Assembly: GCA_963771355.1 (NCBI GenBank)
Contig: CAVYTA010000001.1
Span: 64,001-128,000, forward strand
DNA length: 64,000 bases
Reading direction: 5' to 3'
DNA from: an uncultured Candidatus Rokubacteria bacterium
Lineage (GTDB): Bacteria; Methylomirabilota; Methylomirabilia; Rokubacteriales; CSP1-6
Below are positions 44,450 to 63,621 of this stretch, one piece after another (positions within the stretch are counted from its first letter, which is position 1; each line of letters opens with the position of its first letter). The translations under genes and the position numbers were made by a program. The notes below the pieces were generated by a model. The model searched no databases and was not told where the DNA came from. It saw nothing but the letters and a program-made list of their open reading frames with translations.

Positions 44450-44465
44450 TGGCAGCGCGGTTGCA
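44450..44465 (+). promoter_or_regulatory. sigma-54 promoter
   Basis: TGGCAGCGCGGTTGCA (GG-N10-GC), 33 nt before ATG 44499. Confidence 0.7.
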
Positions 44466-44498
44466 ATACTCACTCCCGAGCACAAGGAGGACTCTCCC

Positions 44499-44717
44499 AT
44501 GGCAAGCCGAGCGAAGACCGCGCGCCGCAAGACCACGAGCTCGACCCGTTCCGCCAAGGCTGGCCGGCCGCCCAAGGAGCCGGTGCTCCCGCCACGGGTG
44601 CGACGCCGTCAGAAGTCCGCGACCGCGGCGGTCAACAAGGGAACCACGCTACAACAGGCCGCCGAGGGGCCTCGGGCCGCCTGGCCCGCCAGCCGGCCGA
44701 TGTTCAAGAAGGGCTAG
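44499..44717 (+). CDS. Small highly basic protein (72 aa)
   Basis: RBS aaggagg. Lys/Arg/Ala/Thr-rich sequence MASRAKTARRKTT...MFKKG. Confidence 0.7.
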   Translation: MASRAKTARRKTTSSTRSAKAGRPPKEPVLPPRVRRRQKSATAAVNKGTTLQQAAEGPRAAWPASRPMFKKG

Positions 44718-44783
44718 CCGTCGTTCGGGCGCGTCCCGTCGGGGCGGGGCGCGAGAGCTTGTGGATGGCGGTATGATCCCCGC

Positions 44784-46280
44784 ATGCGGGTGCTCCTGCT
44801 GGCCATGCCCGACTCCTTCGAGCACATGGCGACGGTCGCCATCCGGATGCCCAATGGCGCCCTGACCTCCCTGGCCGGCAACGTGGATGCCCACCATTCG
44901 GTGGCCGTCGCCGACCTCGTGCTGGTCCAGTCTCGTGTTCGGGCGGTGGTGGAGCGGCTCGTGCGCGAGCAGGCGCCGGACGTGGTGGGGCTCTCGGTGA
45001 TGACCTTCCAGCGCCACACCGCCCAGCGTCTCATCGAGCTGGTGCGCGCGCTCCGTCCGGGCGTCCGGATCGTGGTCGGCGGGTACGACCCCAGCCTGGC
45101 GCCGGAGGCCTATACCCGGCCCGGTCCCGGCGCCGCCGACTTCATCGTGCGCGGGGAAGGCGAGCTGACCTTCCGGGCGCTGCTCCGCGCCCTGGAGCGG
45201 GACACCGCCTTCGACGCGATTCCGGGACTGACCTTCAGAGTCGGAGATCTCGTCGTCGAGAACCCCGCGCGCCCCGTGAGCGGCCTCGAGGACGGCGCCA
45301 TCGCGCTGCCCAACCGCGCCGCGCGCGTGCTGCACGGCTTCACCATGGTCGGCCGTCAGGTGGACGTGGTCGAGACCTCGCGCGGCTGTACCTTCGACTG
45401 CAGCTTCTGCTCCATCATCGAGATGCGGGGGCGGAACTTCCATTCCTACGGGTTCGAGCGCGTGCTGGCCGACATCCGCGACGCGCGGGCCCATGGCGCG
45501 CGGTCCATCTTCATCGTGGACGACAACATCACGCTCGACGTGCGACGGTTCGAGGCGCTGTGCCGGGCGATCGTGGACGCGGGCCTGTCGGACCTCGAGT
45601 ACCTCGTGCAGGCCATGACCTCGGCCATCGCCAACCACGGCCACACCCTGGCGCCGCTGATGCGGCGGGCCGGGTTCCGGTGGGTCTTCCTGGGGATCGA
45701 GAACATCCTCGAGGAGGACCTCGCCTTCCTGCGGGCGAGCGCCAAGAACCGCGCGCGCGAGGGTGGCGCGCCGGCGGGCAACGCCGCGGTGCGGGCCATC
45801 GAGCTCCTGCACCGGCACGGCATGCTGGTGGTCGGCGGGCTCATCGTCGGCAACCCCACCGACACGCGCGAATCGATCGAGGCGAACCTCGAGTTCGCGC
45901 GGCGCTACGTGGACTACCCGTACATCCAGCACCCCACGCCCTATCCCCGCACGCCCATGACGCGGGAGTTCCGCGCCCGCGGCCTGATCATCAACGAGCG
46001 TCTGGACGAGTACGACGGCACCACCGCGGTGGTCCGCAGCGAGCACCTGGACGCCGAGGAGATCGAGTTCATGCGGTGGCGCGCCGAGCGGTGGATGAAG
46101 CTGCGCCACCTGCCGAAGGCCCTGGTCCGCCGACCGTGGTTCGCGCTCCGGTATGGCGGGAAGATGTTCGCCCACACCTTCCGGGGCAGCACGCTCAAGT
46201 CCCTGCTGGGGCTGGAGGACGAGCGCCGGGCGTTCGCCCGCTATCGCGCCATCCGGGCGCGCGAGCGAACCTACCTCTGA
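44784..46280 (+). CDS. Cobalamin-binding radical SAM protein
   Basis: B12-binding-like PDVVGLS..IVVGG, SRGCTFDCSFC (CxxxCxxC), VDDNI, TPYPRT. Confidence 0.92.
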   Translation: MRVLLLAMPDSFEHMATVAIRMPNGALTSLAGNVDAHHSVAVADLVLVQSRVRAVVERLVREQAPDVVGLSVMTFQRHTAQRLIELVRALRPGVRIVVGGYDPSLAPEAYTRPGPGAADFIVRGEGELTFRALLRALERDTAFDAIPGLTFRVGDLVVENPARPVSGLEDGAIALPNRAARVLHGFTMVGRQVDVVETSRGCTFDCSFCSIIEMRGRNFHSYGFERVLADIRDARAHGARSIFIVDDNITLDVRRFEALCRAIVDAGLSDLEYLVQAMTSAIANHGHTLAPLMRRAGFRWVFLGIENILEEDLAFLRASAKNRAREGGAPAGNAAVRAIELLHRHGMLVVGGLIVGNPTDTRESIEANLEFARRYVDYPYIQHPTPYPRTPMTREFRARGLIINERLDEYDGTTAVVRSEHLDAEEIEFMRWRAERWMKLRHLPKALVRRPWFALRYGGKMFAHTFRGSTLKSLLGLEDERRAFARYRAIRARERTYL

Positions 46281-46302
46281 GGCCGAGTCGGGCCGCTGAA
46301 CC

Positions 46303-46409
46303 CGGGGCGCGGGCGCCCCATTCCCGAGGCCGGCGCGGGACAGCGGGGGTAAGCGCGGGCGTGTAACTTTGCGCTTTCCTTGAGGCGTCCACCTGGCACT
46401 CCCGTTGCA
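46303..46409 (+). promoter_or_regulatory. Palindromic enhancer (46303-46320) plus sigma-54 promoter (46394-46409)
   Basis: cggggcgcgggcgcccca lies 91 bp before TGGCACTCCCGTTGCA. Confidence 0.75.
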
Positions 46410-46511
46410 CTCGCTCCAGTCCAGCTTCCGGAGCACGCGTTGAAAAGGGGAGACCGTGCGATTGAAGAGCCGCTGAGCCGAGTCGCGATTGCGGTGGGCA
46501 CAGAAGATGAG

Positions 46512-47081
46512 ATGGGCGGCACCAGCGCGTATCCGGCCGACTTGGCGCGCGAGGTGACGTGCCGAGACGGCACCCGCGTACGCCTGCGGCCCATCCGACC
46601 CGAGGATGCGCCGCGGCTCCAGGCGTTGCATGCGCGACTCAGCCGGGAGACGATCTACCAGCGCTTCTTTGGCGCCACGCCGCGACTTCCGACGCCCTGG
46701 GCCCGCTTCCTGGCCGAGGTGGACTATCGCGGGCGCCTGGCCCTGGTCCTCGAGCGGGGGCCGGCCACTGACCCCGAGCTGATCGGGGTTGGCCGCTACG
46801 AGCCGACCACCGAGCCGGGCACGGCCGAGGTCGCGTTCGTCATCGAGGACCGGTGGCAGGGCAAGGGGCTCGGCACCGTGCTCTTCACCGCGCTTCTCAC
46901 CGCCGCGCGGGAGCGCGGGATCCGCCGCTTCCGGGCCGACGTGCTCGCCGACAACCGACGCATGCTCGACCTCATCACGCGGTTCACATGCGTGGACTCA
47001 CGCGAAACCCGGGACGCGATCACGAGTCTGGTATTCTCTCTCCCGCCGGCCGGACCGACCACCCGCACGAAGGAGGCATGA
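46512..47081 (+). CDS. GNAT acetyltransferase (stand-alone Pat/PatZ-type GNAT domain)
   Basis: RLRPIRPED, LSRETIYQRFF, VDY, AEVAFVIEDRWQGKGLG, VLADNRRML. Confidence 0.88.
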   Translation: MGGTSAYPADLAREVTCRDGTRVRLRPIRPEDAPRLQALHARLSRETIYQRFFGATPRLPTPWARFLAEVDYRGRLALVLERGPATDPELIGVGRYEPTTEPGTAEVAFVIEDRWQGKGLGTVLFTALLTAARERGIRRFRADVLADNRRMLDLITRFTCVDSRETRDAITSLVFSLPPAGPTTRTKEA

Positions 47082-47959
47082 TGGCAGGGCGCACGAGCTT
47101 CGAGGTTGTGATCGGCACGGATGGCTCCGCCTCCGGGCGCGCCGCCGTGGATGCCGCTGCGCACTTTCCCTGGCCCGCCGGCGCCGGCGCGGTGCTTGTG
47201 GTGGCGAGCCGGGGCGTGCTCGAGTGGTCGCCGGCGGCACGGGCGCTGGCGCAAGGCGCGGCGCAGCGAGTGGGAGCACGCGCGCTCCGGGCGCTCCGTC
47301 GGCGGTGGCCGACAGCCCAGGCGCGGTACCCCTTGCAGTCTCCGAGCGGCGCGCTCCTCGCCGCTGCGCGGTCCGGCCGGGGTGGCGCCATCGTGGTGGG
47401 ATCCGGAGGGCGTGGCGTGCTCGGGCGGCTACTGCTCGGCAGCGTGTCGCGGCAGGTGGTCCAGGCGGCCGCTTGCCCGGTGCTCGTCGTCAAGGGCCGT
47501 TTGAGGCGGGCGCGCCGCTTCACCATCGGGGTGGACGGCTCGGCCAATTCCCGGCGCGCGGCCGCGATGGTGGCGCGCCTGTCCATCCCCCCGGGGGGGC
47601 GGGTGACCTTGGTCTCCGTGATCGAGCCGATTCGCGTTCCCTCCGGAGCCCTGATGCCCGCGCGCATCGGCGGCACGTTGCGCGCGGAGGCGGCGCGCCT
47701 CACCGCCGAGCGGCGGCGGAAGATGGAAAGGGCCCAGCGGCAGCTGCGGATCCGGCTTCGCCGGGCCGGCTGGAAGGTGCGGGAGGTGGTCCGCGTCGCC
47801 ACGCCCCTGGAGGGGTTGCTCGACGCGGCGAATGCCAGCCGGACCGATGTACTCGTCATCGGGGCCCGCGGCACCGGCGGTGTCTCGCGGCTGCTGCTGG
47901 GCAGTGTCGCGGAAGGGGCCATGACCAGGGCACCGATGTCGGTCCTGGTGGTCCGCTAG
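47078..47959 (+). CDS. Tandem universal stress protein
   Basis: Two USP domains: GTDGS...GSGGRG..LLLGSVS and GVDGS...GARGTG..LLLGSVA. Confidence 0.92.
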   Translation: MMAGRTSFEVVIGTDGSASGRAAVDAAAHFPWPAGAGAVLVVASRGVLEWSPAARALAQGAAQRVGARALRALRRRWPTAQARYPLQSPSGALLAAARSGRGGAIVVGSGGRGVLGRLLLGSVSRQVVQAAACPVLVVKGRLRRARRFTIGVDGSANSRRAAAMVARLSIPPGGRVTLVSVIEPIRVPSGALMPARIGGTLRAEAARLTAERRRKMERAQRQLRIRLRRAGWKVREVVRVATPLEGLLDAANASRTDVLVIGARGTGGVSRLLLGSVAEGAMTRAPMSVLVVR

Positions 47960-48071
47960 ACCAGCGCGGCCTCGACGCACCCCAAGTTTTAGAATTCCGT
48001 CCCCTCGCGGCACGGCTACAATCTTTGCGTGGGGGCGCCCGTGACTTGGGCGCCGGAGGGACGAGGCGGGC

Positions 48072-49478
48072 ATGAGCGACCAACGGGTGCTGATCGTCGA
48101 CGACGAGCCGGATATGGTCGAGAACTGCGCGCGTATCCTGGCGCGTGCGGGCTACCAGTGCCTGACCACGACCGATCCCGAGCACGCCCTGGGCCTCGTG
48201 GAGTCCGAGCACCCCGACCTCCTGATCACCGACCTCAAGATGCCGGGGCTCGACGGGATGGAGCTGATCCGCCGCGCCCGGCAACTGGATCCGGCGCTGC
48301 CGATCATCGTCATCACCGCCTTCGCCACCATCGAGTCGGCGGTGGCCGCCATCAAGGAAGGCGCCTTCGACTACTTGCCCAAGACTTTCTCGGTGGACCA
48401 GCTCCGGGTGGCGACCGACCGTGCCCTGGGGCACCGGACGCTGCAGCTCGAGAACCGGAACCTCCGCGCGCAGCTCCGTGGGACCTTCGGGTTCGAGAAC
48501 TTCATTGGCCGGAGCCCCGAGATGTCCGAGGTCTTCGAGCTGGTGCGCAAAGCCGGTCGCTCGGAGGCCAATATCCTGGTCCAGGGAGAGTCGGGCACGG
48601 GCAAGGAGCTGGTCGCCCGCGCCGTGCACGCCAATAGCCCCCGGGTGGCCGAGCCGTTCATCGCGGTGGACTGCGCGTCCCTGCCCGAGCACCTCCTCGA
48701 GTCTGAGCTCTTCGGGCACGAGAAGGGGGCGTTCACGGGCGCGGTGAAGAGCAAGCCCGGCCTGATGGAGACGGCCAACCGGGGCACGCTCTTCCTGGAC
48801 GAGATCGCCGAGCTGCCGGTGAGCCTCCAGGTGAAGCTGCTGCGGTCGCTCCAGGAGCGGCAGGTGCGGCGCGTCGGCGGCACCACCCTCATCCGGTGCG
48901 ACGTGCGCATCGTGTCCGCGACCAATCGGGACCTGCGCGACCTGGTGGCCAAAGGGCAGTTTCGCGAGGAGCTCTTCTATCGGGTCAACGTGATCGCGAT
49001 CCAGCTCCCGCCGCTGCGCGAGCGGGCGGGCGACGTGCCGCTGCTCGCGCAGGCCTTCCTCAAGCGCTACCGCCAGCGCGACATCCAGGGATTTGACGAG
49101 GGCGCCATGGCCGCGCTCGAGCGCTATCCGTGGCCGGGCAATGTCCGCGAGCTGCAGAACATCGTCGAGCGCGCGTGCGCGCTGGCGGAGGGCGATCGCA
49201 TTACGCGCGCGGACTTGCCGGTCTACTTGCTCGAGCGGGCCTCGCCCGCTGCCGCGTCGCGTGGCTCACCCGCCCTCCCCGCGCGCGATGGGGCGGGCGC
49301 CTCGGGGCCGCCGCCGACCCTCCGGGAGGCCAAGCAGCGCTGGCTCCAGGATCTCGAGGGCGCCTATCTTCGCGACCTCCTGGCTCAGCATGGCGGGAAT
49401 ATCTCCGCCGCGGCAAAGATCGCCGGCATCGACCGGAAGACATTTCACCGGTTGCTCAGCCGATACGGAGTCCGCTAG
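48072..49478 (+). CDS. sigma-54-dependent response regulator (NtrC/AtoC family)
   Basis: REC domain (VDDE, TDLKMPG), GESGTGKE, GAFTGA, WPGNVREL and HTH. Confidence 0.95.
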   Translation: MSDQRVLIVDDEPDMVENCARILARAGYQCLTTTDPEHALGLVESEHPDLLITDLKMPGLDGMELIRRARQLDPALPIIVITAFATIESAVAAIKEGAFDYLPKTFSVDQLRVATDRALGHRTLQLENRNLRAQLRGTFGFENFIGRSPEMSEVFELVRKAGRSEANILVQGESGTGKELVARAVHANSPRVAEPFIAVDCASLPEHLLESELFGHEKGAFTGAVKSKPGLMETANRGTLFLDEIAELPVSLQVKLLRSLQERQVRRVGGTTLIRCDVRIVSATNRDLRDLVAKGQFREELFYRVNVIAIQLPPLRERAGDVPLLAQAFLKRYRQRDIQGFDEGAMAALERYPWPGNVRELQNIVERACALAEGDRITRADLPVYLLERASPAAASRGSPALPARDGAGASGPPPTLREAKQRWLQDLEGAYLRDLLAQHGGNISAAAKIAGIDRKTFHRLLSRYGVR

Positions 49479-50338: not shown

Positions 50339-50857
50339 ATGCCTAGCCCCGCGACACTCCTGTTTCGCGTTGCTCAACTCCTCTACTTCATGGCGCCAGC
50401 GTACATCGCCAACATGGCTCCACCCTTTGTCCGATACTGGAACGGATGGAATCGTCCCATCAGTCAGCGCTGGCTCGGTAACCACAAGACCGTCATGGGC
50501 TTCGGGTTTGGCGTGCTGGCGGCGGTGGTGGTCACGTTTGTCCAGTCGCGCGTTGCCTGGGAGGGAGCTCTCGTCTCCTCTGGTCACTGGACCGCGCTTG
50601 GACTGCGCTTTGGTGTCGGCGCCATGGCTGGCGACAGTGCGAAGAGTTTCGTGAAGCGGCGCGTCGGGATTGCTCCGGGCAAGTCCTGGATCCCCTGGGA
50701 CCAATTGGACTTTGTGCTGGGCGCGCTCATATTCACTTGGGGGTGCTCCCCATTGTCATGGCCCGATCTAGCAACAATTCTGCTCCTCAGCACGGGAGGG
50801 CATATTCTCATCAATCATCTCGGCTACTGGATCGGGATACGAGACGTGAAATGGTAG
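50339..50857 (+). CDS. CDP-archaeol synthase (CarS/DUF46)-like cytidylyltransferase
   Basis: PAYIANMAP, LGNHKT..G, GAMAGDSAKSFVKRR.GI.PG, DQLDF and a C-terminal GIRDVKW. Confidence 0.8.
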   Translation: MPSPATLLFRVAQLLYFMAPAYIANMAPPFVRYWNGWNRPISQRWLGNHKTVMGFGFGVLAAVVVTFVQSRVAWEGALVSSGHWTALGLRFGVGAMAGDSAKSFVKRRVGIAPGKSWIPWDQLDFVLGALIFTWGCSPLSWPDLATILLLSTGGHILINHLGYWIGIRDVKW

Positions 50858-51002: not shown

Positions 51003-51575
51003 GTGACGGCCACATCCCTTCCGCGCGATCAGACGGCGTACCGTCACCCGGTTGATGAGGTGGTGGCGACGCTCGACACGGACCCGGAGCGTCGGCTTGA
51101 GCCAGGGGGAGGCGCGCGCCCGGCTCGACCGCTACGGCAGGAACGAGCTGGACTGGGGAGAAGCCGGTCCCGGCGTGGCGGAAGTTTCTCGCCCAGTTCC
51201 ACGACGTGCTCGTCGTCTTCCTGCTCATCGCGACCGCGATCTCGGCCGGGCTGTGGCTCTACGAGCTCGGCTCCGCCTTGCCCTACGAGGCGATGGCGAT
51301 CCTTGCCGTCGTGCTGCTCAACGCGGTCATGGGCTACGTCCAGCAGTCACGAGCGGAGCAAGCGGTGGCGGCGTTACGGCAGATGTCGGCGGCGGACGCC
51401 CGTCCTGCAGGAGGATGGCGGACGCTGGACGGTGCAGGGCGACCCGACCGAGGGCGCGCTCGTCGTCGCCGCGCGGAAGGCCGGGCTGCAGGACGTGCGC
51501 TGCGCGGCGGTGGGAAGCTCGGCGCTGTGGCTCCGCGAGCTGAGCAAGATGGCATCGCGCTTCAGAGGGGCGTGA
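51003..51575 (+). pseudogene. Collapsed cation-transporting (Ca2+-type) P-type ATPase
   Basis: N-terminal GLSQGEARARLDRYGRNEL plus TM1-2 and QQSRAEQAVAAL, joined to GDPTEGAL and then a last-TM-like tail. DKTGT and TGES are missing. Confidence 0.8.
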
Positions 51576-51633
51576 GCAAGCAGCGCGCTCCACGCGGCGA
51601 GAGCTGAGAAGATGTCCCCTGGAGGAGTGAACA

Positions 51634-53997
51634 ATGGGTAGCGTGCTGTCACGAGACGAGCTCAGCGCCATCGATGCGTACTGGCGGGCGGCGAACTATC
51701 TCTCCGTCGGCCAGATCTACCTCCTGGACAACCCCCTGCTCCGGCAACCCCTCACGCCTGAGCACATCAAGCCCCGGCTGCTCGGTCACTGGGGCACGAC
51801 GCCGGGGCTGAACTTCATCTACGCGCACCTGAACCGGGCGATCAGGAAGTACGACCTCGACATGATCTACGTGTGCGGCCCCGGCCACGGCGGCCCGGGG
51901 ATGGTCGCCAACACGTATCTCGAGGGCACGTACAGCGAACTGTACGCGAGCATCTCGCAGGATGCCGAGGGGATGCGACGCCTCTTCAAGCAGTTCTCCT
52001 TCCCGGGCGGGATCCCGAGTCATGCCTCTCCCGAGACCCCCGGCTCGATCAACGAGGGCGGCGAGCTCGGCTACTCGCTGGCGCACGCCTACGGGGCTGC
52101 GTTCGACAACCCCGATCTGATCGTCGCGTGTGTGGTGGGGGACGGGGAGGCCGAGACCGGCGCTCTGGCGACGGCCTGGCACTCAAACAAGTTCCTCAAT
52201 CCCGCCACCGACGGCGCCGTCGTGCCGATCCTGCACCTGAATGGCTACAAGATCGCCGGTCCGACCGTCCTGGCCCGGATCGGCCGGCAGGAGCTCGAGA
52301 GCCTCCTGGTCGGCTACGGCCATGAGCCTCACTTCGTCGAGGGTACCGACCCCGAGGTCATGCACGAGCAGATGGCGGCGAGCTTGGACACCGTGATCGA
52401 ACGGATCCGCGCCATCCAGCAGGACGCGCGGGGCGGGGCCGGGGCCCGGCGGCCGCGCTGGCCCATGATCGTCCTGCAGACGCCCAAGGGCTGGACCGGT
52501 CCGAAGGAGGTCGACGGCAAGAAGACCGAGGGTTCCTGGCGGTCACACCAGGTGCCGCTCGCCGAAGTGGCCACGAACGAGGCGCACCGCCGGCAGCTCG
52601 AGCAGTGGATGAGGAGCTACCGGCCCGAGACCCTCTTCGACGAATCGGGCCGCCTCGTGCCGCAGATCGCCGCCCTGGCGCCGGTCGGATTACGGCGCAT
52701 GGGCGCCAATCCGCATGCCAACGGCGGCCTTCTCCTCAAGGATCTGATGATGCCGAACTTCCGCGACTTCGCGGTCGACGTCCCCAAGCCCGCAACTAAG
52801 TTCGCCGAGGCCACCCGGGTCCTCGGCGTCTTCCTGCGCGACGTCATGCGACTGAATCGCGATCGGCGAGACTTCCGTGTCTTCGGGCCCGACGAGACCG
52901 CCTCGAATCGCCTGGGCGCGCTGTTCGAGGTCACCGATCGTACGTGGCTGGCCGACCGGCGCGCGGAGGACGAGTCGCTCGGTCCCGACGGGCGCGTCAT
53001 GGAGATCCTGAGCGAGCACACCTGCCAGGGCTGGCTCGAGGGCTATCTCCTCAGCGGGCGTCACGGGTTCTTCTCGTGCTACGAGGCCTTCATCCACATC
53101 GTCGACTCGATGTTCAATCAGCACGCGAAGTGGCTGAAGGTGTGCAGGGAGATCTCCTGGCGCCGGCCGGTCGCGTCTCTCAACTACCTGCTCACGTCTC
53201 ATGTCTGGCGCCAGGACCACAACGGTTTCTCCCACCAGGATCCCGGCTTTCTTGACGTCGTCGTCAACAAGAAAGCCGACGTGATCCGCGTCTACCTGCC
53301 GCCGGACGCGAACACCCTGTTATCGGTCGCCGACCATTGCCTGCGGAGCCGGAACTACGTCAACGTCATCGTGGCCGGCAAGCAGCCCGGCCTCCAGTAC
53401 CTCGACATGGATGCCGCCATCAAACACTGCACGGCCGGCATCGGCATCTGGGAGTGGGCGAGCAACGACCGGGGGAGCGAGCCCGACGTCGTGATGGCCT
53501 GCGCGGGCGACGTGCCGACCCTTGAGACGCTCGCGGCGGTCTCGCTGCTGCGTCAGCATCTCCCGACGCTTAGGGTCCGGGTGATCAATGTCGTCAATCT
53601 CATGAAGCTCCAGCCGACGAGGGAGCACCCGCACGGGCTCTCCGATCGGGAGTTCGACACCCTGTTCACGACGGACAAGCCGATCATCTTCGCGTTCCAC
53701 GGCTACCCGTGGCTGATCCATCGTCTCACCTACCGGCGGACCAACCACCAGAACCTCCACGTGCGAGGCTACAAGGAGGAGGGCACCACGACGACGCCCT
53801 TCGACATGGTCGTGCTGAACGAGCTCGACCGGTTCCATCTGGTGGTGGACGTGATCGACCGCGTGCCGGGGCTGGGGACGACGGCCGCCTACGCCAAGCA
53901 GGCGATCCGCGACAAGCTCATCGAGCACCGGCAGTACATCGAGCGATACGGCGAGGACATGCCAGAGGTCCGCGAGTGGACGTGGAGCGGAGAATAA
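51634..53997 (+). CDS. xfp: Phosphoketolase
   Basis: [42 protein letters not shown]. Confidence 0.97.
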
Positions 53998-54010
53998 GGG
54001 ATGCCAGACG

Positions 54011-54661: not shown

Positions 54662-54669
54662 GGAGGATT

Positions 54670-55336: not shown

Positions 55337-55379
55337 GACAGGCATGAGAGCGCCAACGTACTCCCGGGCGAGCGAGACG

Positions 55380-55538
55380 TCAACGGTCTCGAGCGATGCT
55401 CGCCAGGACCGCCTCGTGCAGGAAGCCATTGGTCGCCATGATCCCATGCTCGTTGACCAGACTTGGGGCCCGATAGTCGATTGACATGAAGCCACCGAAA
55501 ACGACGCCGTCGGGCTTCACCACACCCGGATTTCGCAT
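55380..55538 (-). pseudogene. C-terminal fragment resembling CysQ/inositol monophosphatase
   Basis: My translation gives ...IDYRAPSLVNEHGIMATNGFLHEAVLASIARDR*, similar to the family C-terminus. The rest of the gene is absent. Confidence 0.45.
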
Positions 55539-55657
55539 GCGATACTGAACTCCCGGAAGCGCCAGTAGCGCAACCCCAAGGTCAGCGCGATGAGATCCGT
55601 CTTGTCGTCCATCTCCGCCAGCGCGACCACCACGAGCGAACTGATCAGGGGCATCAT
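55517..55657 (-). pseudogene. N-terminal fragment of a TMEM165/GDT1 (UPF0016) protein
   Basis: SLVVVALAEMDDKTDLIAL resembles the ExGDKT motif. Truncated after ~30 aa. Confidence 0.6.
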
Positions 55658-56955
55658 CGCTGCGCTCGCATCAGCCATCCTGCCGCCAGGCCGGTTGCAC
55701 ACAGCAACACTCCGAGGCCGATCGCCAGCGGCTCCAGCTGCGTCATCATGAAGGCCACCGACCCGAGCCCGAGCACCGGCAACACGGGAATGCCGCCCAC
55801 GGTCCCCGCGACCGCGAACGGGCGTGGCAGCTCCGGGCGCGTGCGCCGGAGAAGGATTACCGTCCCGTTCACCGCGAGAAACACGACATAGACCGCGAAA
55901 TCCGTCACCGCGGCGACCACGGCAAAATCGCCGAACAAGGCAAACGTTCCCGCGACCAGCGCCACCGCCACGATCGCGCGAATCGGGGTGCGCCGACGCT
56001 GATGGACGAACGCGAAGGAGCGTGGCATCGCCCCGGCCTTCGCCATCCCGTACATGACCCGCGACGCGGCGGTCACCACGAGGAGTGTGGTGTTGGTCGT
56101 CGTCATGACGGCGATCGCCGCCACGACGGTGGCACCTCGGTCTCCCAGCACGTGGGCCATCACATCGGCCAGCGGGCGCGGCGAAGCGGCGAGCGTGTCG
56201 GCGCCGAGCACGCTCACGGCGGCGACCGCCACGGCGATGTAGAGCCCGGTCGACAGCCCGAGCGCGAGCAGCAAGGCGCGGGGCACGGTCCGCGTCGGAT
56301 CGCGTGTTTCTTCTGCGAGCGTGATGACTTCATCGAACCCGATGAAGGCGAAGAACACGAGTGCCGCCGCCCCAAGCACACCTCCGACGCCATGCCCGGA
56401 CAGGAGATCTACGTCTCCGACATGGGGTACCCCTATGGCGATGACGAGCACCAGCCCGCCGACCTGGACCGCGCTCAAGGCGACCGTGAGCCGGGCGGAG
56501 TGCTTGACCCCCACCATCGCGATGGTGGACACCACGGTCAGAAGACCGAGGGCTGTCGCCCGCGCATCGATGTCCAGGAAGTAGCCCGCGTAACGCGCAA
56601 ACCCGATCGACACCGTAGCTGCAGCCACAACCAAGCCCATGATCATCGTCCAGCCAACGACGAACGCGACCCACTCCGGCATCGCCCGGCGCGTGTACTC
56701 GTATTCGCCCGCGGCGCTGGGGAACATCGAGCTGAGTTCGGCATAGCTGAGACCAGTCAGAGCGCTCAACACGGCAGCGACGAGAAACGCCAGCCAGACG
56801 AGCGGGCCCGCGTGTGCGGTGGCGGCGCCAAGCAAAACGTAGATCCCCGCCCCGATGATGATTCCCACGCCGCCGGCGGTGACTTCCATGAGGCCGAGCA
56901 CACGACGGAGCGACGTGGCAGGGTCGATGGGGTTCGGGCCGGCGCCGTTGGCCAT
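55654..56955 (-). CDS. APC family amino acid permease
   Basis: GIIIGAGIY, SYAELSSMFP.AAGEY, FFAFIGFD, AEETRDP. About 12 TM. Confidence 0.92.
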   Translation of the reverse strand: MANGAGPNPIDPATSLRRVLGLMEVTAGGVGIIIGAGIYVLLGAATAHAGPLVWLAFLVAAVLSALTGLSYAELSSMFPSAAGEYEYTRRAMPEWVAFVVGWTMIMGLVVAAATVSIGFARYAGYFLDIDARATALGLLTVVSTIAMVGVKHSARLTVALSAVQVGGLVLVIAIGVPHVGDVDLLSGHGVGGVLGAAALVFFAFIGFDEVITLAEETRDPTRTVPRALLLALGLSTGLYIAVAVAAVSVLGADTLAASPRPLADVMAHVLGDRGATVVAAIAVMTTTNTTLLVVTAASRVMYGMAKAGAMPRSFAFVHQRRRTPIRAIVAVALVAGTFALFGDFAVVAAVTDFAVYVVFLAVNGTVILLRRTRPELPRPFAVAGTVGGIPVLPVLGLGSVAFMMTQLEPLAIGLGVLLCATGLAAGWLMRAQR

Positions 56956-57031: not shown

Positions 57032-57340
57032 TTACCCGGCGAGATCACGTTTTCTGGCCTCGAACTCGTCGCGGTTGATCTCGCCCCGGGCATACCGCTC
57101 TCGCAAGATCTCGAGCGCCGTGTCCTTCCCCGGCGCTCGGCCCTGTGCGACGAGCCAGCGAATGCCGAGCACGGTGCCGGTGATCAAGATCGCCCAGAAT
57201 AACAGCATCATACCGAGACCCCAGACTCCCCACATCGGATGCATCCCCCAGTGCCACTCATAGACCCGCTCCTGCGCCCATGCCGAGCCCGGCACGAGAA
57301 GTATCGCCAGCAGCGGCAGCCGGATTCCTAGACGTTCCAT
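57032..57340 (-). CDS. SHOCT-domain membrane protein
   Basis: Signal peptide, HWGMHPMWG, a TM segment and ALEILRERYARGEINRDEF. Confidence 0.85.
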   Translation of the reverse strand: MERLGIRLPLLAILLVPGSAWAQERVYEWHWGMHPMWGVWGLGMMLLFWAILITGTVLGIRWLVAQGRAPGKDTALEILRERYARGEINRDEFEARKRDLAG

Positions 57341-57468: not shown

Positions 57469-57484
57469 AGCAAGGGGGGTGCCA
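57469..57484 (-). promoter_or_regulatory. sigma-54 promoter (leftward)
   Basis: Minus strand TGGCACCCCCCTTGCT (GG-N10-GC). Confidence 0.72.
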
Positions 57485-57692
57485 TCACGAGGCCGGCGCC
57501 AGTGCCCTCGTAAGTGACCGAAACAGCGCGCGAGGGCCGGGACCCCTCTGCGCTCGCATTCTGCTCCGGCCTGCGCACATCGTCCGGCACTGCCCCACGT
57601 GGGACGATGCCTTCCCGACCCCAATGACAGTGCGCGCCAACCCGAACACGGCGCGGGCATGAAGCTCGACGGAGCCGGTAATCCGATTCGCG

Positions 57693-57810
57693 CGGGGCAC
57701 GGCTGCCCCGATAGGGGCTCGCCCCGCCTCACCTCGCGCCCCGCCTTAGCGCCGAGAAACTCTGAAGGGCCTGGAATCACTGCAGAACCCTTCCTGGCAT
57801 TACCATTGCT
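57693..57810 (+). promoter_or_regulatory. Palindromic enhancer (57693-57710) plus sigma-54 promoter (57795-57810)
   Basis: cggggcacggctgccccg lies 102 bp before TGGCATTACCATTGCT. Confidence 0.78.
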
Positions 57811-57875: not shown

Positions 57876-58664
57876 ATGTCGCTGAAGGACCTGCTCGTCA
57901 TCGCGGACAATGACCCGACCTACGCGGCCCGCCTCGACATCGCGCTCGCGCTGGCTGCCGAGCATCACGCACACCTGACAGGGCTGTACGTGATGCCGCC
58001 GCCCCTGAAGCCGATCCTCGAGCTTGAGGACGCGGCCCGACGGGCGGCGGCGGTCTTCGCCGAGCGTGCGGGACGGACCACGGTATCCACGGATTGGCGG
58101 GTCGCGGAGGGCGACATCGTGCGTGTGGCGAGCGAGCAGGCCCGCTATGCGGACCTGACCGTGCTCCCCCAGGGCATCGACCTCGGGTTCGCCTCCGCCG
58201 ACCTCGCGCGGCTGCCCCAGGAGCTGGCCCTCGGAGTGGGCCGTCCCGTGCTGGTCATCCCGCGCCATGGCTCGTTCCCCAAGGTGGGCGGCCGGGTGCT
58301 GGTGGCCTGGAACGGGAGCCGCGAGGCCACGCGGGCGGTCCACGACGCTCTGCCCTTGTTGCGCCGGGCCGAGCAGGTCACCGTTCTGTCGATCAATCCG
58401 GACGCCGCTGCGGAGCGCCGCCTGCCTGGTGCGCATGTCTCCCGGCACCTCACCCGTCATGGAGTGACCGTGCAGGCGACGCCGACCATCACCGGTGCCG
58501 ATGTCGCCGTCGGCGACCTCCTGCTCTCCTATGTCGCCGATCACGACATCGACCTCGTCGTGATGGGCGCCTACGGGCACACCCGACTGCGCGAGATGGT
58601 CCTCGGCGGGGCCACCCGGACGCTGCTCCGGCACATGACGGTGCCGGTGCTGATGTCGCATTGA
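57876..58664 (+). CDS. Universal stress protein (tandem type)
   Basis: GRPVLVIP, VAWNGSREATRA, DLVVMGAYGHTRLRE..GGAT. Confidence 0.93.
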   Translation: MSLKDLLVIADNDPTYAARLDIALALAAEHHAHLTGLYVMPPPLKPILELEDAARRAAAVFAERAGRTTVSTDWRVAEGDIVRVASEQARYADLTVLPQGIDLGFASADLARLPQELALGVGRPVLVIPRHGSFPKVGGRVLVAWNGSREATRAVHDALPLLRRAEQVTVLSINPDAAAERRLPGAHVSRHLTRHGVTVQATPTITGADVAVGDLLLSYVADHDIDLVVMGAYGHTRLREMVLGGATRTLLRHMTVPVLMSH

Positions 58665-58675
58665 GGGCGCGCCCG

Positions 58676-58920
58676 ATGGACGGAAGAGTGTTCTATCGCA
58701 TCGTCGTCGCGGTAGATTTCTCGCCGCCTTCCGAAGAGGCGTGGGATCATGCCAGGCGGCTGGCGGCCCTCTCGGACGCGGAGTTGATTCTTACCCACGT
58801 CGTGGCCGCGGCCCCTGGGTTTGTGGGCGGATCGCTCACGCGCACGCGGATCGCCGAGGTCCAGGCCTCGCTGCGCCGCTGGGCGGACGACAAGCTGACA
58901 AAGTGGACGGCCGGTGCTGT
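58676..58920 (+). pseudogene. Truncated universal stress protein
   Basis: RIVVAVDFSPPSEEA...LILTHVV is a USP N-terminus. The C-terminal G..G..GSV motif is absent and the sequence runs into the next promoter. Confidence 0.7.
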
Positions 58921-58953
58921 CGGTCCGCGCACTATCATGATGGGATGGTCACC

Positions 58954-58969
58954 CGGCACCTCGGTTGCA
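58954..58969 (+). promoter_or_regulatory. sigma-54 promoter
   Basis: CGGCACCTCGGTTGCA (GG-N10-GC), about 100 nt before ATG 59071. Confidence 0.65.
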
Positions 58970-59070
58970 CTTAGTATTCGTAGAGGTTGGGGGCCTGACG
59001 GTCGCTGCACCGGCTGGGACCCCCGAACGCGGGTGGATGATTGGCCGCCACCGGGCGCGGGAGAGTCATC

Positions 59071-59535
59071 ATGTTGGTCCAAGAGCTGAGCAGGCAGGAG
59101 AGTCTAGACCTGTTGGCGCACAGGCGTCTGGGGAGATTGGCGTGTGCCCAGGGGGCGCAACCCTATGTCGTGCCCGTCTACTTCGTTTATCACGAGCGAT
59201 CGCTCTATAGCTTTGCCACGGTCGGGCAAAAGATCGAGTGGATGCGCGCCAACCCGCTGGTCTGCGTCGAAACGGACGAGGTGGTGAGCCCGCAGCAGTG
59301 GGTGAGCGTCATCGTGTTCGGTCGCTACGAGGAGCTGCCGGATACGCCACAATGGCAGAGCGCACGCACACTCGCCCACACGCTGCTGAAGCAGACCGCC
59401 ATGTGGTGGGAGCCGGCCTACGTGAAGACGATTCACTGCGGTGCACAGCGTCCGCTGATACCGGTCTTCTACCGCATTCACATCGATCAAATTACCGGCC
59501 ACCGCGCCACCCCGGAGCCGGGCGGCATCGTCTGA
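59071..59535 (+). CDS. Pyridoxamine 5'-phosphate oxidase-like (NimA-like) flavin-binding protein
   Basis: GRLACA..QPYVVP, GQKIEWMRANPLVC, WVSVIVFG, ITG. Confidence 0.88.
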   Translation: MLVQELSRQESLDLLAHRRLGRLACAQGAQPYVVPVYFVYHERSLYSFATVGQKIEWMRANPLVCVETDEVVSPQQWVSVIVFGRYEELPDTPQWQSARTLAHTLLKQTAMWWEPAYVKTIHCGAQRPLIPVFYRIHIDQITGHRATPEPGGIV

Positions 59536-59586: not shown

Positions 59587-59691
59587 TGGGGCGGCGATGT
59601 CCCACCGGGGTGCCGGCTTCCCATTCCCCCTCGCGCTCTGCGAAGTAACCACGTGTGTTCGTTCACCTCTTCGGGTGGCATTTCCGTTGCA
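59587..59691 (+). promoter_or_regulatory. Palindromic enhancer (59587-59604) plus sigma-54 promoter (59676-59691)
   Basis: tggggcggcgatgtccca lies 89 bp before TGGCATTTCCGTTGCA. Confidence 0.78.
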
Positions 59692-59745
59692 CTCTTTCGT
59701 CGCCATGACCGGGCGACCAAGTTCAGGAAGCCGAGGAGGCCACCA

Positions 59746-60192
59746 ATGAGCCGAATTCGACGCGTGCTGCACCCCACCGATTTCTCCGGCGCCTCCGCCG
59801 CCGCCTTCGCGCGGGCCGTCGAAACGGCCAGGTCCAGCCGGGCCGAACTCTTGGTTGTCAATGTCATCCCGCCCACCTTTCTGCCGATCGGCAATGGATA
59901 TATCTCGCCTACGGTGTACGAGGACATGGAAGCCTCCGCGCGCGCCTATGCTCAGAAGCACCTGACGGCGTTGGTCGCCAAGGCAAAGAAAGCGGGCGTT
60001 CGCGCGAAGGGGCTGCTCATGGAGGGCCCGCCGCACGAGCGCATCGTGCAGGCGGCCCGCCGCAAACGGGCCGACCTCGTGGTGATCGGCACACACGGGC
60101 GGACCGGTCTTGCCAAGTTCTTTCTCGGGAGCGTTGCAAGCCGGGTGCTCGCCATCTCGCCGTGTCCTGTCCTGACGGTGCGCGGCAAATAG
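59746..60192 (+). CDS. Universal stress protein
   Basis: LHPTDFS, ADLVVIGTHGRTG...LGSVA, CPVLTV. RBS gaggagg. Confidence 0.95.
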   Translation: MSRIRRVLHPTDFSGASAAAFARAVETARSSRAELLVVNVIPPTFLPIGNGYISPTVYEDMEASARAYAQKHLTALVAKAKKAGVRAKGLLMEGPPHERIVQAARRKRADLVVIGTHGRTGLAKFFLGSVASRVLAISPCPVLTVRGK

Positions 60193-60241
60193 TCCCAAAC
60201 GACCCGGTACCGGGGTTTGGCTCCGGAGGAGGGAACGCACG

Positions 60242-60847
60242 ATGAACACACTCGATGACGTGCGCGAAGTACGAGAAGCTTCCACCGCTTCGCTGGTGGC
60301 GGTGATCGCGATCATGATCGCCAGCGCGCTCGGCTTCGTGCTGCTCACGGCGCCGCTCGCGAAGCTCATGGGTTCCGGCGGGGGCGCGCTGCCGGCGGCG
60401 ATTCACGGTCTCATGGCGTTCCTGTACCTCTTCGTCGGGACCATTGGCCTGTACCTCGGTTGGCGTCTCCTGACCGGACATATCCGGGCATTCGCCGACC
60501 TCCAGCTGCTGGCGGTGGTGGCCGCCACCTTCTCGTTTCTCGCCATCTGCTTCGGGAACTGGCTTTACATCTACTATCGGGCCCCGGTGTCGGATAGCCC
60601 ACGGTCCTACTTCGTCAAGAACATGCCCGAGGTGCACCGGATCTTCTTCGAGTTCAAGGAATTCAGCGCGTTGTTCACACTGCCGCTGGCGGTCTGCGCT
60701 GCGTTCATCCTGTGGCGATACGGAATCCAGACGCTCGAGCGCCCCTGGTTGCGCTACAGCGTGGCCGTGCTCATGGGGCTGGCCTTCTTCTATCTCGTGG
60801 TCGCCTTCGGTCTGGGCGCCGCGGTTACCAAGCTCCGACCTGCCTGA
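60242..60847 (+). CDS. Hypothetical membrane protein (~5 TM)
   Basis: RBS gaggg. Hydrophobic segments with AIHG, GNWLYIYYR and VHRIFFEFKE. Confidence 0.75.
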   Translation: MNTLDDVREVREASTASLVAVIAIMIASALGFVLLTAPLAKLMGSGGGALPAAIHGLMAFLYLFVGTIGLYLGWRLLTGHIRAFADLQLLAVVAATFSFLAICFGNWLYIYYRAPVSDSPRSYFVKNMPEVHRIFFEFKEFSALFTLPLAVCAAFILWRYGIQTLERPWLRYSVAVLMGLAFFYLVVAFGLGAAVTKLRPA

Positions 60848-60862
60848 CGGGGGAGGACGAAT

Positions 60863-61279
60863 ATGAGCCCGACAACGAGCACTGCCAAGCCGGACGAGAA
60901 GAACGTCGAAGTGGCCTGGACTCCGTCGACGCGCGAGCGCATCCCGGGAGGGATCGCGGTGGGGGCGTTGATGGCGGCCATGGTGGGGATGCTGACCCTC
61001 GCGGTGGTGAACGTTTTCACCGCTGGGTCGAAGGCCTTCAACGTCTGGGTCCATGAGGTGGGCAAGCTCTGGATGCCGGGCGCCGCAGGCATCGGGCCCT
61101 ACTCGGGCAAGGAGACGCTGGCGCTGGTGGCCTGGCTGGGCACCTGGCTGATCCTGCACTTCGCCCTGCGGAACAAAGATCTGGAGATCTCGCGCTGGTT
61201 CATCGTCTTCCTGGTGGGCGTGGGAATCGCCACCACTTTGATCTGGCCGCCGGTGTTCGAGTACCTGGCCGGACATTAA
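60863..61279 (+). CDS. Hypothetical membrane protein (3 TM)
   Basis: RBS ggagg. GIGPYSGKE loop and C-terminal WPPVF. Confidence 0.75.
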   Translation: MSPTTSTAKPDEKNVEVAWTPSTRERIPGGIAVGALMAAMVGMLTLAVVNVFTAGSKAFNVWVHEVGKLWMPGAAGIGPYSGKETLALVAWLGTWLILHFALRNKDLEISRWFIVFLVGVGIATTLIWPPVFEYLAGH

Positions 61280-61296
61280 CGAAGGGGAGGTATGTC

Positions 61297-61617
61297 ATGA
61301 AGCGTGTGATCGTGGGCCGTGCGATGGTTGGGCTTCTGGGGCTCGGGCTCGTCCTTGGTCCGACGCTGCCCGCGCGCTCCGGGCCCGGAATGGACGACGA
61401 GCGGATGGCCCAGATGATGAAGATGATGGGCGATATGCAAGAGCAGATGAAGGGGATGCGGCAGCAGATGCAGGGGATGGGCCCGATGCATGGGCGGATG
61501 GAGCACATGATGGGAGAGATGGGGCGGATGCGCGCCTTGATGGAGCAGCATCGCGGCCAGATGATGCAGCATTGCGCCGAGGGGAAACCCGCCCAGCCCC
61601 CCGTGCCGCACAAGTAG
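61297..61617 (+). CDS. Exported methionine-rich protein
   Basis: Signal-like N-terminus followed by 20 Met in 60 residues. Confidence 0.75.
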   Translation: MKRVIVGRAMVGLLGLGLVLGPTLPARSGPGMDDERMAQMMKMMGDMQEQMKGMRQQMQGMGPMHGRMEHMMGEMGRMRALMEQHRGQMMQHCAEGKPAQPPVPHK

Positions 61618-61636
61618 CCTGGCGCCGGAGGCGGAC

Positions 61637-61888
61637 ATGATCGATCGGGATGCGCTGATCACCTACCTGGCCGTAGTCCTCCGTGGCCCCGTCGAGGTCC
61701 TGACGCTTCGCCCGTTCAAGGACGCTCCCGCCGAAGCGGAAGACGCGCTGGTGATCGCGCATCCGCGCTGGTACCCGACGCTGACCGCCGGGACGCGACG
61801 AGCGCTCATCGGCTTCGCGCAGCGGCTCATGGCGAACGGCCCCGTCGATCCCGCGCGCGTCCTGGAGCTGCTCGGAGGCCGGTCGTGA
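61637..61888 (+). pseudogene. Probable internally deleted phosphotransferase (APH-like) gene
   Basis: RBS ggagg. The N-terminus (YL..VLRGPVEVL) is joined to a C-terminus (LVIAHPRWYP.L...RRAL..F) that I recall from APH-family proteins encoded before APS-kinase-like genes. No kinase core is present. Confidence 0.45.
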
Positions 61889-63036
61889 GCTGGGCGATCT
61901 GGATTACCGGCCTTCCCGGCAGCGGCAAGTCGGCCATCGCCCGTGCCGCGGCGGCCGAGCTGAGGCGGCTCGGCCGGCCGGTGGCGCTGCTCGAGCTCGA
62001 CGAGATCAGGAAGAGCATCACGCCGACGCCGCGTTACACCGACGCCGAACGCGACGTCGTGTACCGGGCGCTAACCTATCTGGCGGCCATGCTGACGGAG
62101 GTGAAGGTGCCGGTGTTCATCGACGCGACTGCCCACCGGCGCGCCTGGCGCGACCTGGCTCGGGCGGTGATCCCGCACTTCGCTGAGGTCCAGCTCGTCT
62201 GTCCCCTGGAAGTCTGCCAGGAACGGGAGCGGACCCGGCCCCTCGGCCACGCCCCGCGGGACATGTATCGCCAGGCGGGATCGCCCCGCGCCACCGTGCC
62301 CGGCGTCAACGTGCCCTATGAAGCGGCGGCGTCGCCGGAGGTGGTGATCGACACCGGAGGGGAGAGCGTGATGGAGGGCGCGGCGCGGGTTGTTCAGCTC
62401 GCGCAAGAGCTCGCCGCCCGGGCCGCCGGGGGCGCGGTCCCGCCCGCCGCCGAGCCCGCGGAACCCGGCTGGGCCATCTGGATCACCGGCCGGCCGGGAA
62501 GCGGAAAGAGCACGCTGGCGACGCGCGCGGCGGCTGCCCTCGCGGCGCGCGGCGTGCATGCGCGCGTGCTCAATCATGCCAGCGTCCGCAGCTTCCTGCT
62601 CGGCGATGGTGCGATCGGGGAGGGGGAGCAGGACTTCATCTACCGCGTCCTCGCCTACGCGGCGAAGCTCCTGACCGAGGCCGGCATGTCGGTGATCGTC
62701 GACGCCACCGCGTCACGCCGCGTCTGGCGCGAGGCGGCGCGCTCCCTCATCCCGTGCTTTGCGGAAGTCCAGCTCCTCTGCCCCGCCGAGATCTGTCTCG
62801 AGCGCGAGCGCGCCGTCCACTGGGGGCTCGCCTCCGGTCTCGATGTCTCTCGCGGCGGCACCGCGAGGGCCCCCGACATCGTGCTGGACTACGAGGAGTC
62901 GTCGCGCCCGGATCTCGCGCTCCGGACGGATGTGCACGACATCTGGACCGAAGTGGAGCAAGTCCTCATTCTCGTCCAGCGTCTGAGAAGCGCGCTGGCC
63001 AATCGGCCCGAAACACCCGAAAGGGGAATGCCATGA
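61885..63036 (+). CDS. Tandem adenylyl-sulfate-kinase-like (CysC-like) protein, two P-loop domains
   Basis: WAIWITGLPGSGKS and WAIWITGRPGSGKS, each followed by DATA..R.WR and FAEVQL.CP.E.C.ERE. Confidence 0.85.
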   Translation: MSWAIWITGLPGSGKSAIARAAAAELRRLGRPVALLELDEIRKSITPTPRYTDAERDVVYRALTYLAAMLTEVKVPVFIDATAHRRAWRDLARAVIPHFAEVQLVCPLEVCQERERTRPLGHAPRDMYRQAGSPRATVPGVNVPYEAAASPEVVIDTGGESVMEGAARVVQLAQELAARAAGGAVPPAAEPAEPGWAIWITGRPGSGKSTLATRAAAALAARGVHARVLNHASVRSFLLGDGAIGEGEQDFIYRVLAYAAKLLTEAGMSVIVDATASRRVWREAARSLIPCFAEVQLLCPAEICLERERAVHWGLASGLDVSRGGTARAPDIVLDYEESSRPDLALRTDVHDIWTEVEQVLILVQRLRSALANRPETPERGMP

Positions 63037-63464
63037 TCGTCAGAGAGTTGATGACCGGAGCGGTGATCACCGCGCCGCCGTGGATGCCCATCCTCGAGGC
63101 GCGCAATCTCATGATCAAGGAGCGTATCCGCCACCTGCCGGTGAGGGCCCCCGGCGGCGAGCTGCTCGGCATGATCACCGATCGGGACATCCGGTTGAAC
63201 TTGCCGTCCCAGGCTACCAGCCTCTCGGTGTGGGAGATCAAACACCTGCTGTCGAAGCTTACCGTCGACGAGGTCATGACGCAGGCGGTGATCACCGTGG
63301 GGCCGGACCGCCCCGCCCGCGAGGCCGCCCGGCTGATGATGGAGCACCAGATCGGGGCGTTGCCCGTCGAGGACGGCGGGTGTCTGGTCGGCATCGTCAC
63401 CGAGACCGACGTGCTGCGGGCCTTCATCCGCATGGATACGCCCCTGGCAAGCCGGCGCAGCTGA
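63033..63464 (+). CDS. CBS domain protein (AcuB-like)
   Basis: IRHLPV..LLGMITDRDI and IGALPV..LVGIVTETD. Confidence 0.92.
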   Translation: MIVRELMTGAVITAPPWMPILEARNLMIKERIRHLPVRAPGGELLGMITDRDIRLNLPSQATSLSVWEIKHLLSKLTVDEVMTQAVITVGPDRPAREAARLMMEHQIGALPVEDGGCLVGIVTETDVLRAFIRMDTPLASRRS

Positions 63465-63514
63465 TGCGCCGCGCGTGTTAGCTGGAGATCGACGAGGTCG
63501 CCGCCCGCCTAGCT

Positions 63515-63621
63515 CGGGGCATCCATGTCCCATTTCCGGGTCTCGACGCAACAGCACCATGATGACGCATACGCCGAATCTCTTGGATTCACGGCATTCC
63601 TGGAGTGGCACCTCGATTGCT
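63515..63621 (+). promoter_or_regulatory. Palindromic enhancer (63515-63532) plus sigma-54 promoter (63606-63621)
   Basis: cggggcatccatgtccca lies 91 bp before TGGCACCTCGATTGCT. Confidence 0.78.

Follow-up and report, generated by a model that had tools for sequence, protein, structure and literature searches.

The window analysed here is a stretch of 64,000 nucleotides from an uncultured Candidatus Rokubacteria bacterium (assembly GCA_963771355.1, contig CAVYTA010000001.1, positions 64,001 to 128,000). Rokubacteria are common in soils and have no known cultured member. Between 44 and 64 kb the window carries an island with several genes for universal stress proteins (USP), a sigma-54 activator gene at 48072-49478 and seven -24/-12 promoter motifs; the island extends 11 kb beyond the window, with four further motifs. 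An 18 bp palindrome, YGGGRC-N6-GYCCCR, lies 70-133 bp 5' of the motif in five of these window promoters, namely those at 46394, 57484, 57795, 59676 and 63606. These five would form one enhancer-defined regulon, most likely that of the 48072 activator. The features concerned are, in map order:

44450..44464, plus strand: -24/-12 motif without upstream palindrome; a duplicate of the promoter at C1:135037, the palindromes having decayed in the 44450 copy
44499..44717, plus strand: 72-aa basic open reading frame (ORF) without Pfam match; second copy at C1:135149
44784..46280, plus strand: B12-binding radical SAM gene
46303..46320, no strand: palindrome CGGGGC-N6-GCCCCA, 17.1 bits, 91 bp ahead of the 46394 motif
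46394..46408, plus strand: -24/-12 motif heading the GNAT and USP genes and probably the activator gene
46512..47081, plus strand: Pat-like GNAT acetyltransferase, under the NCBIfam cut-off for Pat
47081..47959, plus strand: tandem USP
48072..49478, plus strand: sigma-54 activator with receiver, AAA+ and helix-turn-helix (HTH) domains and intact GAFTGA, the likely reader of the palindrome
57032..57340, minus strand: small membrane protein with a SHOCT domain
57470..57484, minus strand: -24/-12 motif heading the SHOCT gene and probably also the amino-acid permease behind it
57600..57617, no strand: weaker palindrome, 9.8 bits, 133 bp ahead of the 57484 motif
57693..57710, no strand: palindrome, 14.7 bits, 102 bp ahead of the 57795 motif
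57795..57809, plus strand: -24/-12 motif heading a USP gene
57876..58664, plus strand: USP
58676..59089, plus strand: broken USP gene with a 188-bp internal deletion relative to G002, its frame reading through the 58954 motif
58954..58968, plus strand: -24/-12 motif without palindrome, adjoining the deletion junctions in the read-through tail of the broken USP gene
59071..59535, plus strand: pyridoxamine-oxidase-like (PPOX) protein
59587..59623, no strand: two tandem palindromes, 19.2 and 11.0 bits, 89 and 70 bp ahead of the 59676 motif
59676..59690, plus strand: -24/-12 motif heading a run of seven genes, from USP to CBS
59746..60192, plus strand: USP
60242..61888, plus strand: four genes unmatched in Pfam and NCBIfam, coding for two membrane proteins, a Met-rich protein and an 83-aa protein
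61885..63036, plus strand: tandem APS-kinase-like P-loop protein
63033..63464, plus strand: CBS-pair protein, last gene of the 59676 run
63515..63532, no strand: palindrome, 16.4 bits, 91 bp ahead of the 63606 motif
63606..63620, plus strand: -24/-12 motif heading the BirA-like gene and probably also the PAS-PAS kinase gene C1:128511-130094 beyond the window
63650..64000, plus strand: BirA-like biotin ligase, continuing past the window end

Sigma-54 motifs and the shared palindrome

The -24/-12 motif was searched for as YGGCA-N6-TTGC, and strict sites were counted in the 64-kb window and in the genome. A first-pass annotation of this DNA had listed seven such motifs, each of them oriented towards a gene start. 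All seven (44450, 46394, 57484 on the minus strand, 57795, 58954, 59676 and 63606) were confirmed in the sequence, on the strands given there, and all of them lie 30-130 bp 5' of a same-strand start. The shuffling check that had been proposed gave 8 matches in the window versus 0.98 expected, and none of the 100 shuffles reached 8. Between 44 and 64 kb, the 7 sites compare with 0.30-0.39 in Markov simulations of order 1-4 (maximum 3, 300 runs each). Furthermore, when the same half-sites were combined with other spacers in this interval, the 6-base spacer gave 7 matches versus 0-2 for any other spacer within 2-11. Genome-wide, the 6-base spacer gives 117 sites, 72 of which are intergenic with a same-strand gene at most 300 bp away, as against 1-4 intergenic gene-facing sites for each other spacer from 3 to 10, the genes being those of our own gene caller.

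The genome has one rpoN match (E 9e-62) and around 24 sigma-54 activators, counted as 24 strong matches to the Sigma54_activat domain. Its sigma-54 regulon is large and, therefore, with 24 activators available, closeness on the map alone cannot name the activator of the island. Neither is the island unique in motif density, because another dense cluster on contig C7 (594,500-628,300, L178-L180) holds 12 strict sites in 34 kb. None of these 12 has the palindrome; the cluster includes two activators and genes for CsbD, LigD, DUF3309, four BON, a PRC-barrel and a ferritin-like protein. Other sigma-54 targets in the genome are presumably catalase, Ku and trehalose synthase, which they resemble in their first residues. 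In this lineage, the general stress response may depend on sigma-54.

Regarding the palindrome, it was not found at the 44450 and 58954 promoters. Thus, of the single regulon of seven promoters that had been proposed, five members stand and these two do not; from their sequence they appear to have lost the palindrome and are probably silent or weak. Its half-site GCCCCA occurs in 45 of 69 upstream regions, taken from this island and from the activator loci of relatives, versus 6 of 63 other sites, and an unseeded palindromic search of 49 promoters of relatives returned TGGGGC-N6-GCCCCA. A matrix was then trained on these 49 promoters, a set without this genome and G002, and a palindrome was called at 8 bits or more between -140 and -60, a score that 1% of random positions attain. 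In this genome, the matrix finds a palindrome at 9 of the 11 island promoters and at none of the 77 other intergenic sigma-54 sites (Fisher p 1e-10). When strong palindromes were paired with relaxed promoters across the genome, 8 pairs were obtained, every one of them in the island.

The position of the palindrome is also constrained. In the relatives, 245 palindrome sites in 79 loci peak at -70, -80, -90, -101 and -111 from the motif, and none of them lies at -74 to -76, -85/-86 or -97; many of these loci were selected by a pattern that constrains the range of the palindrome and not its phase. The steps of around 10 bp correspond to the helical register. An IHF-like motif stands at -30/-29 in 31 of 171 promoters, and a dyad around 80-150 bp 5' of the start is present at five of the seven window promoters and at 9 of the 11 island promoters. 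Judged by sequence, enhancer and promoter are arranged as is usual in sigma-54 systems. Similar dyads do occur elsewhere, since 32 of 151 sampled Myxococcota genomes show the palindrome-promoter pattern, with at most 3 per genome; large sets do not occur among them. The wiring to sigma-54 that the first-pass annotation suggested is supported by the presence of rpoN, by motifs far above background and by a shared enhancer-like palindrome in helical register.

The likely activator and its predicted sensor

The first-pass annotation had named the NtrC-type regulator at 48072-49478 as the probable activator. With around 24 candidates available this was a guess, and the co-occurrence pattern in 40 relatives now speaks for it. 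The protein has its AAA+ domain, GAFTGA loop and HTH, and its closest named relative among the matches listed is from Candidatus Rokubacteria (70% identical), which shows the lineage of the protein and not its range. An orthologue is present in 29 of the 40 relatives and was not found in the other 11 by two queries. At least two palindrome-promoter pairs occur in 26 of the 29 genomes with the orthologue and in none of the 11 without it, three of which hold one pair each. The core motif is equally frequent in both groups (33-68 sites without the orthologue versus 33-75 with it, seven genomes each). When the sample was widened, 97 of 144 genomes within the order and 11 of 55 genomes outside it gave a match to the orthologue. 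In a quick tree of 133 activators, the 25 orthologue rows fall into a single branch (support of 99 in the Shimodaira-Hasegawa-like approximate likelihood ratio test, SH-aLRT). At 11 of the 26 orthologue loci, the activator gene is directly followed by a strict motif that leads to USP or BirA genes. Co-occurrence thus likely picks the 48072 activator out of the candidates, and the comparison makes it very probable that this protein binds the palindrome.

Two further activators deserve mention. The G002 activator is apparently frameshifted (L029:9271-10245, pieces 96% and 88% identical), yet the G002 promoters retain the palindrome; the frameshift may be an assembly error. Elsewhere in the window, at 24529-25530 on the minus strand (within 21897-25530), there is a 333-aa sigma-54 activator without receiver or sensor domain; behind it come a strict motif (24336) and a subtilase gene.

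As for the sensor, 12 of 26 loci have a kinase gene of one H-box subfamily immediately upstream of the activator gene, and 2 have it in divergent orientation. The kinase of our island, C1:128511, is the genome's top match for all 13 such kinases compared (201-260 bits versus 120-159 for the next), and a kinase match is found in 26 of the 29 activator-bearing genomes. Both of its PAS domains retain the histidine aligned to the heme ligand of FixL and FG214. The top structural matches of the second PAS model (predicted local distance difference test, pLDDT, 87) are the heme domains of FixL, FG214 and DosP, and the second histidine and the methionine of FG214 are retained as well. Within the subfamily, 29 rows minus one repeat left 28 kinases in the fetched loci, of which 12 have a His-PAS input, 10 have membrane helices and a PAS without the histidine, and 6 have other inputs. 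In one relative (L159:2953-5993), two kinases of the subfamily, one with a His-PAS and one of the membrane type, are adjacent and divergent. By these comparisons C1:128511 is probably the partner of the 48072 activator; that it binds heme, with low oxygen as its cue rather than another redox or energy signal, we hold only slightly less probable.

It is well known that a phosphorylated NtrC-type activator oligomerises on its enhancer, loops to the closed holoenzyme, often with the help of IHF, and opens the promoter with ATP. In our case, the predicted heme-PAS kinase would phosphorylate the 48072 activator, probably as oxygen falls, and the activator would bind the palindrome and turn on stress and dormancy-type genes at the sigma-54 promoters. 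The activator gene lies 113 bp, and the kinase gene 46 bp, behind genes of palindrome-led runs, so that positive feedback is likely.

Gene content and weighing of the explanations

Pfam matches were obtained for the GNAT protein, the USPs, the receiver-AAA+-HTH activator, phosphoketolase and the SHOCT, PPOX-like, CBS and BirA-like proteins. Regarding the targets first proposed, CBS has no promoter of its own and 44450 heads the 72-aa basic ORF and then the radical SAM gene. Past the window, the island continues with the PAS-PAS kinase, a lactamase-rhodanese protein, CBS, a lone receiver, CBS-BON, cytochrome c, an acyl-CoA ligase, three further USP genes or pieces and a baeRF protein like the Rv2629-type hibernation factors (NCBIfam match under the cut-off). 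The island holds 10 of the genome's 12 USP matches. All four unmatched genes of 60242..61888 recur at activator loci of relatives; in many relatives, the 83-aa protein, the tandem APS-kinase-like protein, CBS and the BirA-like ligase are found as a group behind the activator. The duplicated promoter and small basic ORF (44337-44717 and C1:135037-135300) are 70% identical, the second copy having TTG where the window copy has ATG, and neither matches Pfam; a homologue of the 72-aa ORF (60% identical) sits in a palindrome-led operon of one relative.

The first-pass annotation spoke of a sigma-54 regulon across a USP/CBS/phosphoketolase island, which is overstated for the middle of the island: there is no sigma-54 site from 47.6 to 57.4 kb, phosphoketolase included, even when the relaxed matrix is applied. 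On this sequence, phosphoketolase is not shown to be a sigma-54 target in this genome. The genes listed there are:

50339..50857, plus strand: CarS-like gene without sigma-54 site
51052..51575, plus strand: P-type ATPase remnant, with a weak Pfam match under the cut-off and pieces in several frames
51634..53997, plus strand: phosphoketolase without upstream sigma-54 site or palindrome in this genome

This part shows decay from 51052 to 55700, where, besides the ATPase remnant, DUF2238 is split or frameshifted over several frames; by eye, there is an apparent fragment of a GDT1-type gene near 55517-55657.

In the relatives, 171 palindrome-bearing promoters precede 444 proteins, which include 91 USP, 38 CBS, 13 BirA-like, 7 HSP20, 5 HPF, 5 oxidase subunit pairs and 4 baeRF proteins, as well as 3 each of phosphoketolase, acetate kinase and P-type ATPase. 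The USP, CBS, BirA, baeRF and phosphoketolase labels come from BLAST to the island proteins; for the other labels, Pfam was applied to 84 proteins, with few exceptions a single one from each cluster, out of 171 clusters. The element also heads NirK and DMSO-reductase-type operons and PfkB and ferritin genes; the oxidase tested matches ba3-type structures (E 1e-147), and one gene clears the NirK cut-off. The genes of a DosR-type set present here are USP, CBS, PPOX and baeRF, while HSP20, HPF and PfkB are found in relatives only. The likeness to DosR proposed in the first-pass annotation is strengthened by this gene content, here and in relatives, and by the predicted heme-PAS kinase just past the window.

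Taken together, we consider it likely, with somewhat more reserve than for the kinase and its cue taken singly, that the island is one palindrome-marked sigma-54 regulon in which a heme-PAS kinase acts on the 48072 activator, probably at low oxygen. Several points weigh against this. The palindrome was first noticed in a set that included this genome's promoters, and the relatives' loci used for the offset and gene-content counts were picked for having matches. The relatives are akin and several of their genomes are fragmented, so that the co-occurrence counts are not independent and amount to a strong association of activator and palindrome, not to a proof of binding. Three orthologue-bearing genomes have few pairs (0 in G013 and G029, 1 in G037), and G012 and G016 have a kinase match without the activator. 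The island kinase is 15 kb from the activator in this genome and, by domain content, sensor input varies across the order, many relatives using a membrane kinase. The distal arginine of FixL, which stabilises bound O2, aligns with a leucine (ungapped alignment to 1d06) and the distal histidine of FG214 with a glycine, so that oxygen would be one candidate among the ligands of the heme-PAS. No ba3 oxidase, NirK or HPF was found in this genome by tblastn, and its version of the regulon would therefore be the protective core. RNA is available as contigs from 14 runs (best share 0.28); those of 4 runs give a low and even cover that includes intergenic DNA, deep only over conserved genes common to other organisms, and they are uninformative on starts or expression.

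The alternative to be taken most seriously, although we think it unlikely, keeps the activator, the palindrome and the regulon and replaces oxygen by the redox or energy state of the cell, nitric oxide or carbon monoxide (NO/CO), or membrane stress. It is a matter of general knowledge that USP and CBS genes answer many stresses. The 10 of 28 subfamily kinases with membrane helices have no heme histidine, the island kinase does not retain the distal arginine of FixL, and FG214, the nearest PAS domain of solved structure, is reported to be redox-switched (PMC13060918). However, a non-oxygen cue does not fit well with an element that heads ba3 oxidase, NirK and anaerobic reductase operons in relatives, nor with L017, where a classical FixL-type PAS sits on the same kinase core; furthermore, the general-stress-type genes of this genome are under other sigma-54 promoters, without the palindrome. 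Oxygen is probably the signal.

It might also be that another of the 24 strongly matching activators, or a factor unrelated to sigma-54, reads the palindrome and that the 48072 gene is only one of the targets. A mere target gene would co-occur with the regulon too, and the activator C6:2691009 has a similar-looking helix-turn-helix. Against this, the 48072 orthologue is the activator found inside the regulon loci of relatives, beside the kinase, and an orthologue of the C6 activator occurs in G020, which has 0 pairs (one of five genomes tested; the activators profiled singly were those of 48072 and C6). We regard such a reader as quite improbable. Even less credit can be given to the idea that the motifs are chance matches or dead remnants in an island run by FNR/FixK-type or housekeeping promoters, which we consider extremely unlikely: the decay in its middle (ATPase remnant, broken USP, frameshifted DUF2238) and the two window promoters without palindrome would suit it, but the shuffle, Markov and spacer controls and the conservation of the pattern across the order speak against it. 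FNR boxes (TTGAT-N4-ATCAA) with at most one mismatch number 0 in 31 kb of the island, sigma-70-like promoters number 1 versus 1.7 expected, and Rfam matched nothing within the window.

For Rokubacteriales as a whole, we lean slightly towards a full DosR-equivalent dormancy switch built on sigma-54, with one activator clade for the order, one 18-bp enhancer, swappable sensors (heme-PAS, classical FixL-type PAS or membrane kinases, in some cases two of them adjacent) and hibernation, chaperone, high-affinity oxidase and denitrification outputs. If this is true, the enhancer lets the low-oxygen programme of an uncultured soil lineage be read from sequence. The set of activator, enhancer and promoter gives exact predictions of binding site, partner kinase and start sites, the latter at 46420, 57458 (minus strand), 57821, 59702 and 63632. 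It suggests a survival gene set of the DosR/lxa type under the control of a third kind of regulator. The element also gives a likely physiological setting to unknown proteins of 72, 83, 138 and 201 aa. The mechanism is textbook and a Myxococcus sigma-54 low-oxygen regulon is published, which means that known biology is extended here and not overturned.

Comparison with known systems

DosR of Mycobacterium tuberculosis belongs to the LuxR/NarL type; its sensors are heme-GAF proteins and sigma-54 is not involved. The unnamed genes in the table of its regulon are said to include USP, CBS and PPOX-like proteins. In contrast, our island has an AAA+ enhancer-binding protein as its regulator and PAS as the sensor domain, with no LuxR/NarL and heme-GAF pair. 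In PMC4082495, the DosR hypoxia list has hspX, pfkB, ctpF, bfrB and Rv2629; the relatives share HSP20, PfkB, a cation ATPase, ferritin and nitrate-related genes with this DosS/DosT-DosR system, and this island has the Rv2629-like factor (NCBIfam match under the cut-off). The two side-by-side kinases of L159 recall the DosS/DosT pair. The lxa locus of Burkholderia cenocepacia (PMC3721108) is compact and low-oxygen-induced, with many USPs, acetate kinase, a cation ATPase and two-component genes, and most of its intergenic regions share a motif, TGA-N6-TCA, ascribed to Anr/Fnr-type factors. Our island is likewise compact and USP-rich with a shared intergenic motif, but it has no good FNR box. An identity with either type, DosR or FNR, was rejected on regulator class, sensor domain and the FNR-box scan.

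With FixL and FG214 (PMC13060918), the island kinase shares the proximal histidine of the PAS domain. It scores 205 where the cut-off for rhizobial FixL is 850, its distal residues differ, and the output here is a sigma-54 activator, unlike the FixJ-FixK output of rhizobial FixL. In Planctomycetes, USP and CBS are enriched among predicted sigma-54 targets, and the excerpt of PMC12316311 does not mention this lineage. Literature searches for Rokubacteria with sigma54 or hypoxia/USP, for heme-PAS/sigma54 and for DosR-like/sigma54 gave no description of this regulon, subscription journals being mostly outside their coverage.

The closest published system is NmpRSTU of Myxococcus xanthus (PMC11841059), a heme-sensing system that runs through sigma-54 and has USP, CBS and cbb3 genes among its targets, hypoxic induction being shown for one promoter. 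Both systems have an NtrC-type activator acting with sigma-54, palindromic enhancers, a heme-based sensor (predicted here), a self-regulated operon, and USP, CBS and a high-affinity oxidase as targets. They differ in the site and in the sensor and, probably, in the activator clade. The NmpR site, GCGCA-N5-TGCGC, was rejected as the island enhancer, as it is not enriched, with one exact match (63455) and no paired sites. In Nmp, sensing falls to a protoglobin kinase that belongs to a relay of four proteins, as against the PAS-PAS kinase here; no protoglobin-coupled kinase like NmpU was found, the genome's sole protoglobin match being a stand-alone protein of around 180 aa far from the island. 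A search confined to the island found neither the NmpS hybrid kinase nor the double-receiver NmpT; what the island has is one kinase of the plain type and one protein with a single receiver. In a tree without NmpR itself, where 11 activators from 12 protoglobin loci of Myxococcota stood in for it, the 48072 clade is separate from all 11.

At three myxococcotal loci (L122, L130 and L132), USP and CBS genes with several sigma-54 motifs ahead of them occur together with an activator and a protoglobin-locus kinase. Their activators form a branch of their own and these promoters have neither the NmpR site nor our palindrome; the loci may represent a third parallel system. With NmpR, a low-oxygen regulon that uses sigma-54 and includes USP and CBS genes is already published, and the probable low-oxygen sigma-54 switch with this palindrome, this activator clade and a PAS-PAS kinase is a new version of a known switch.

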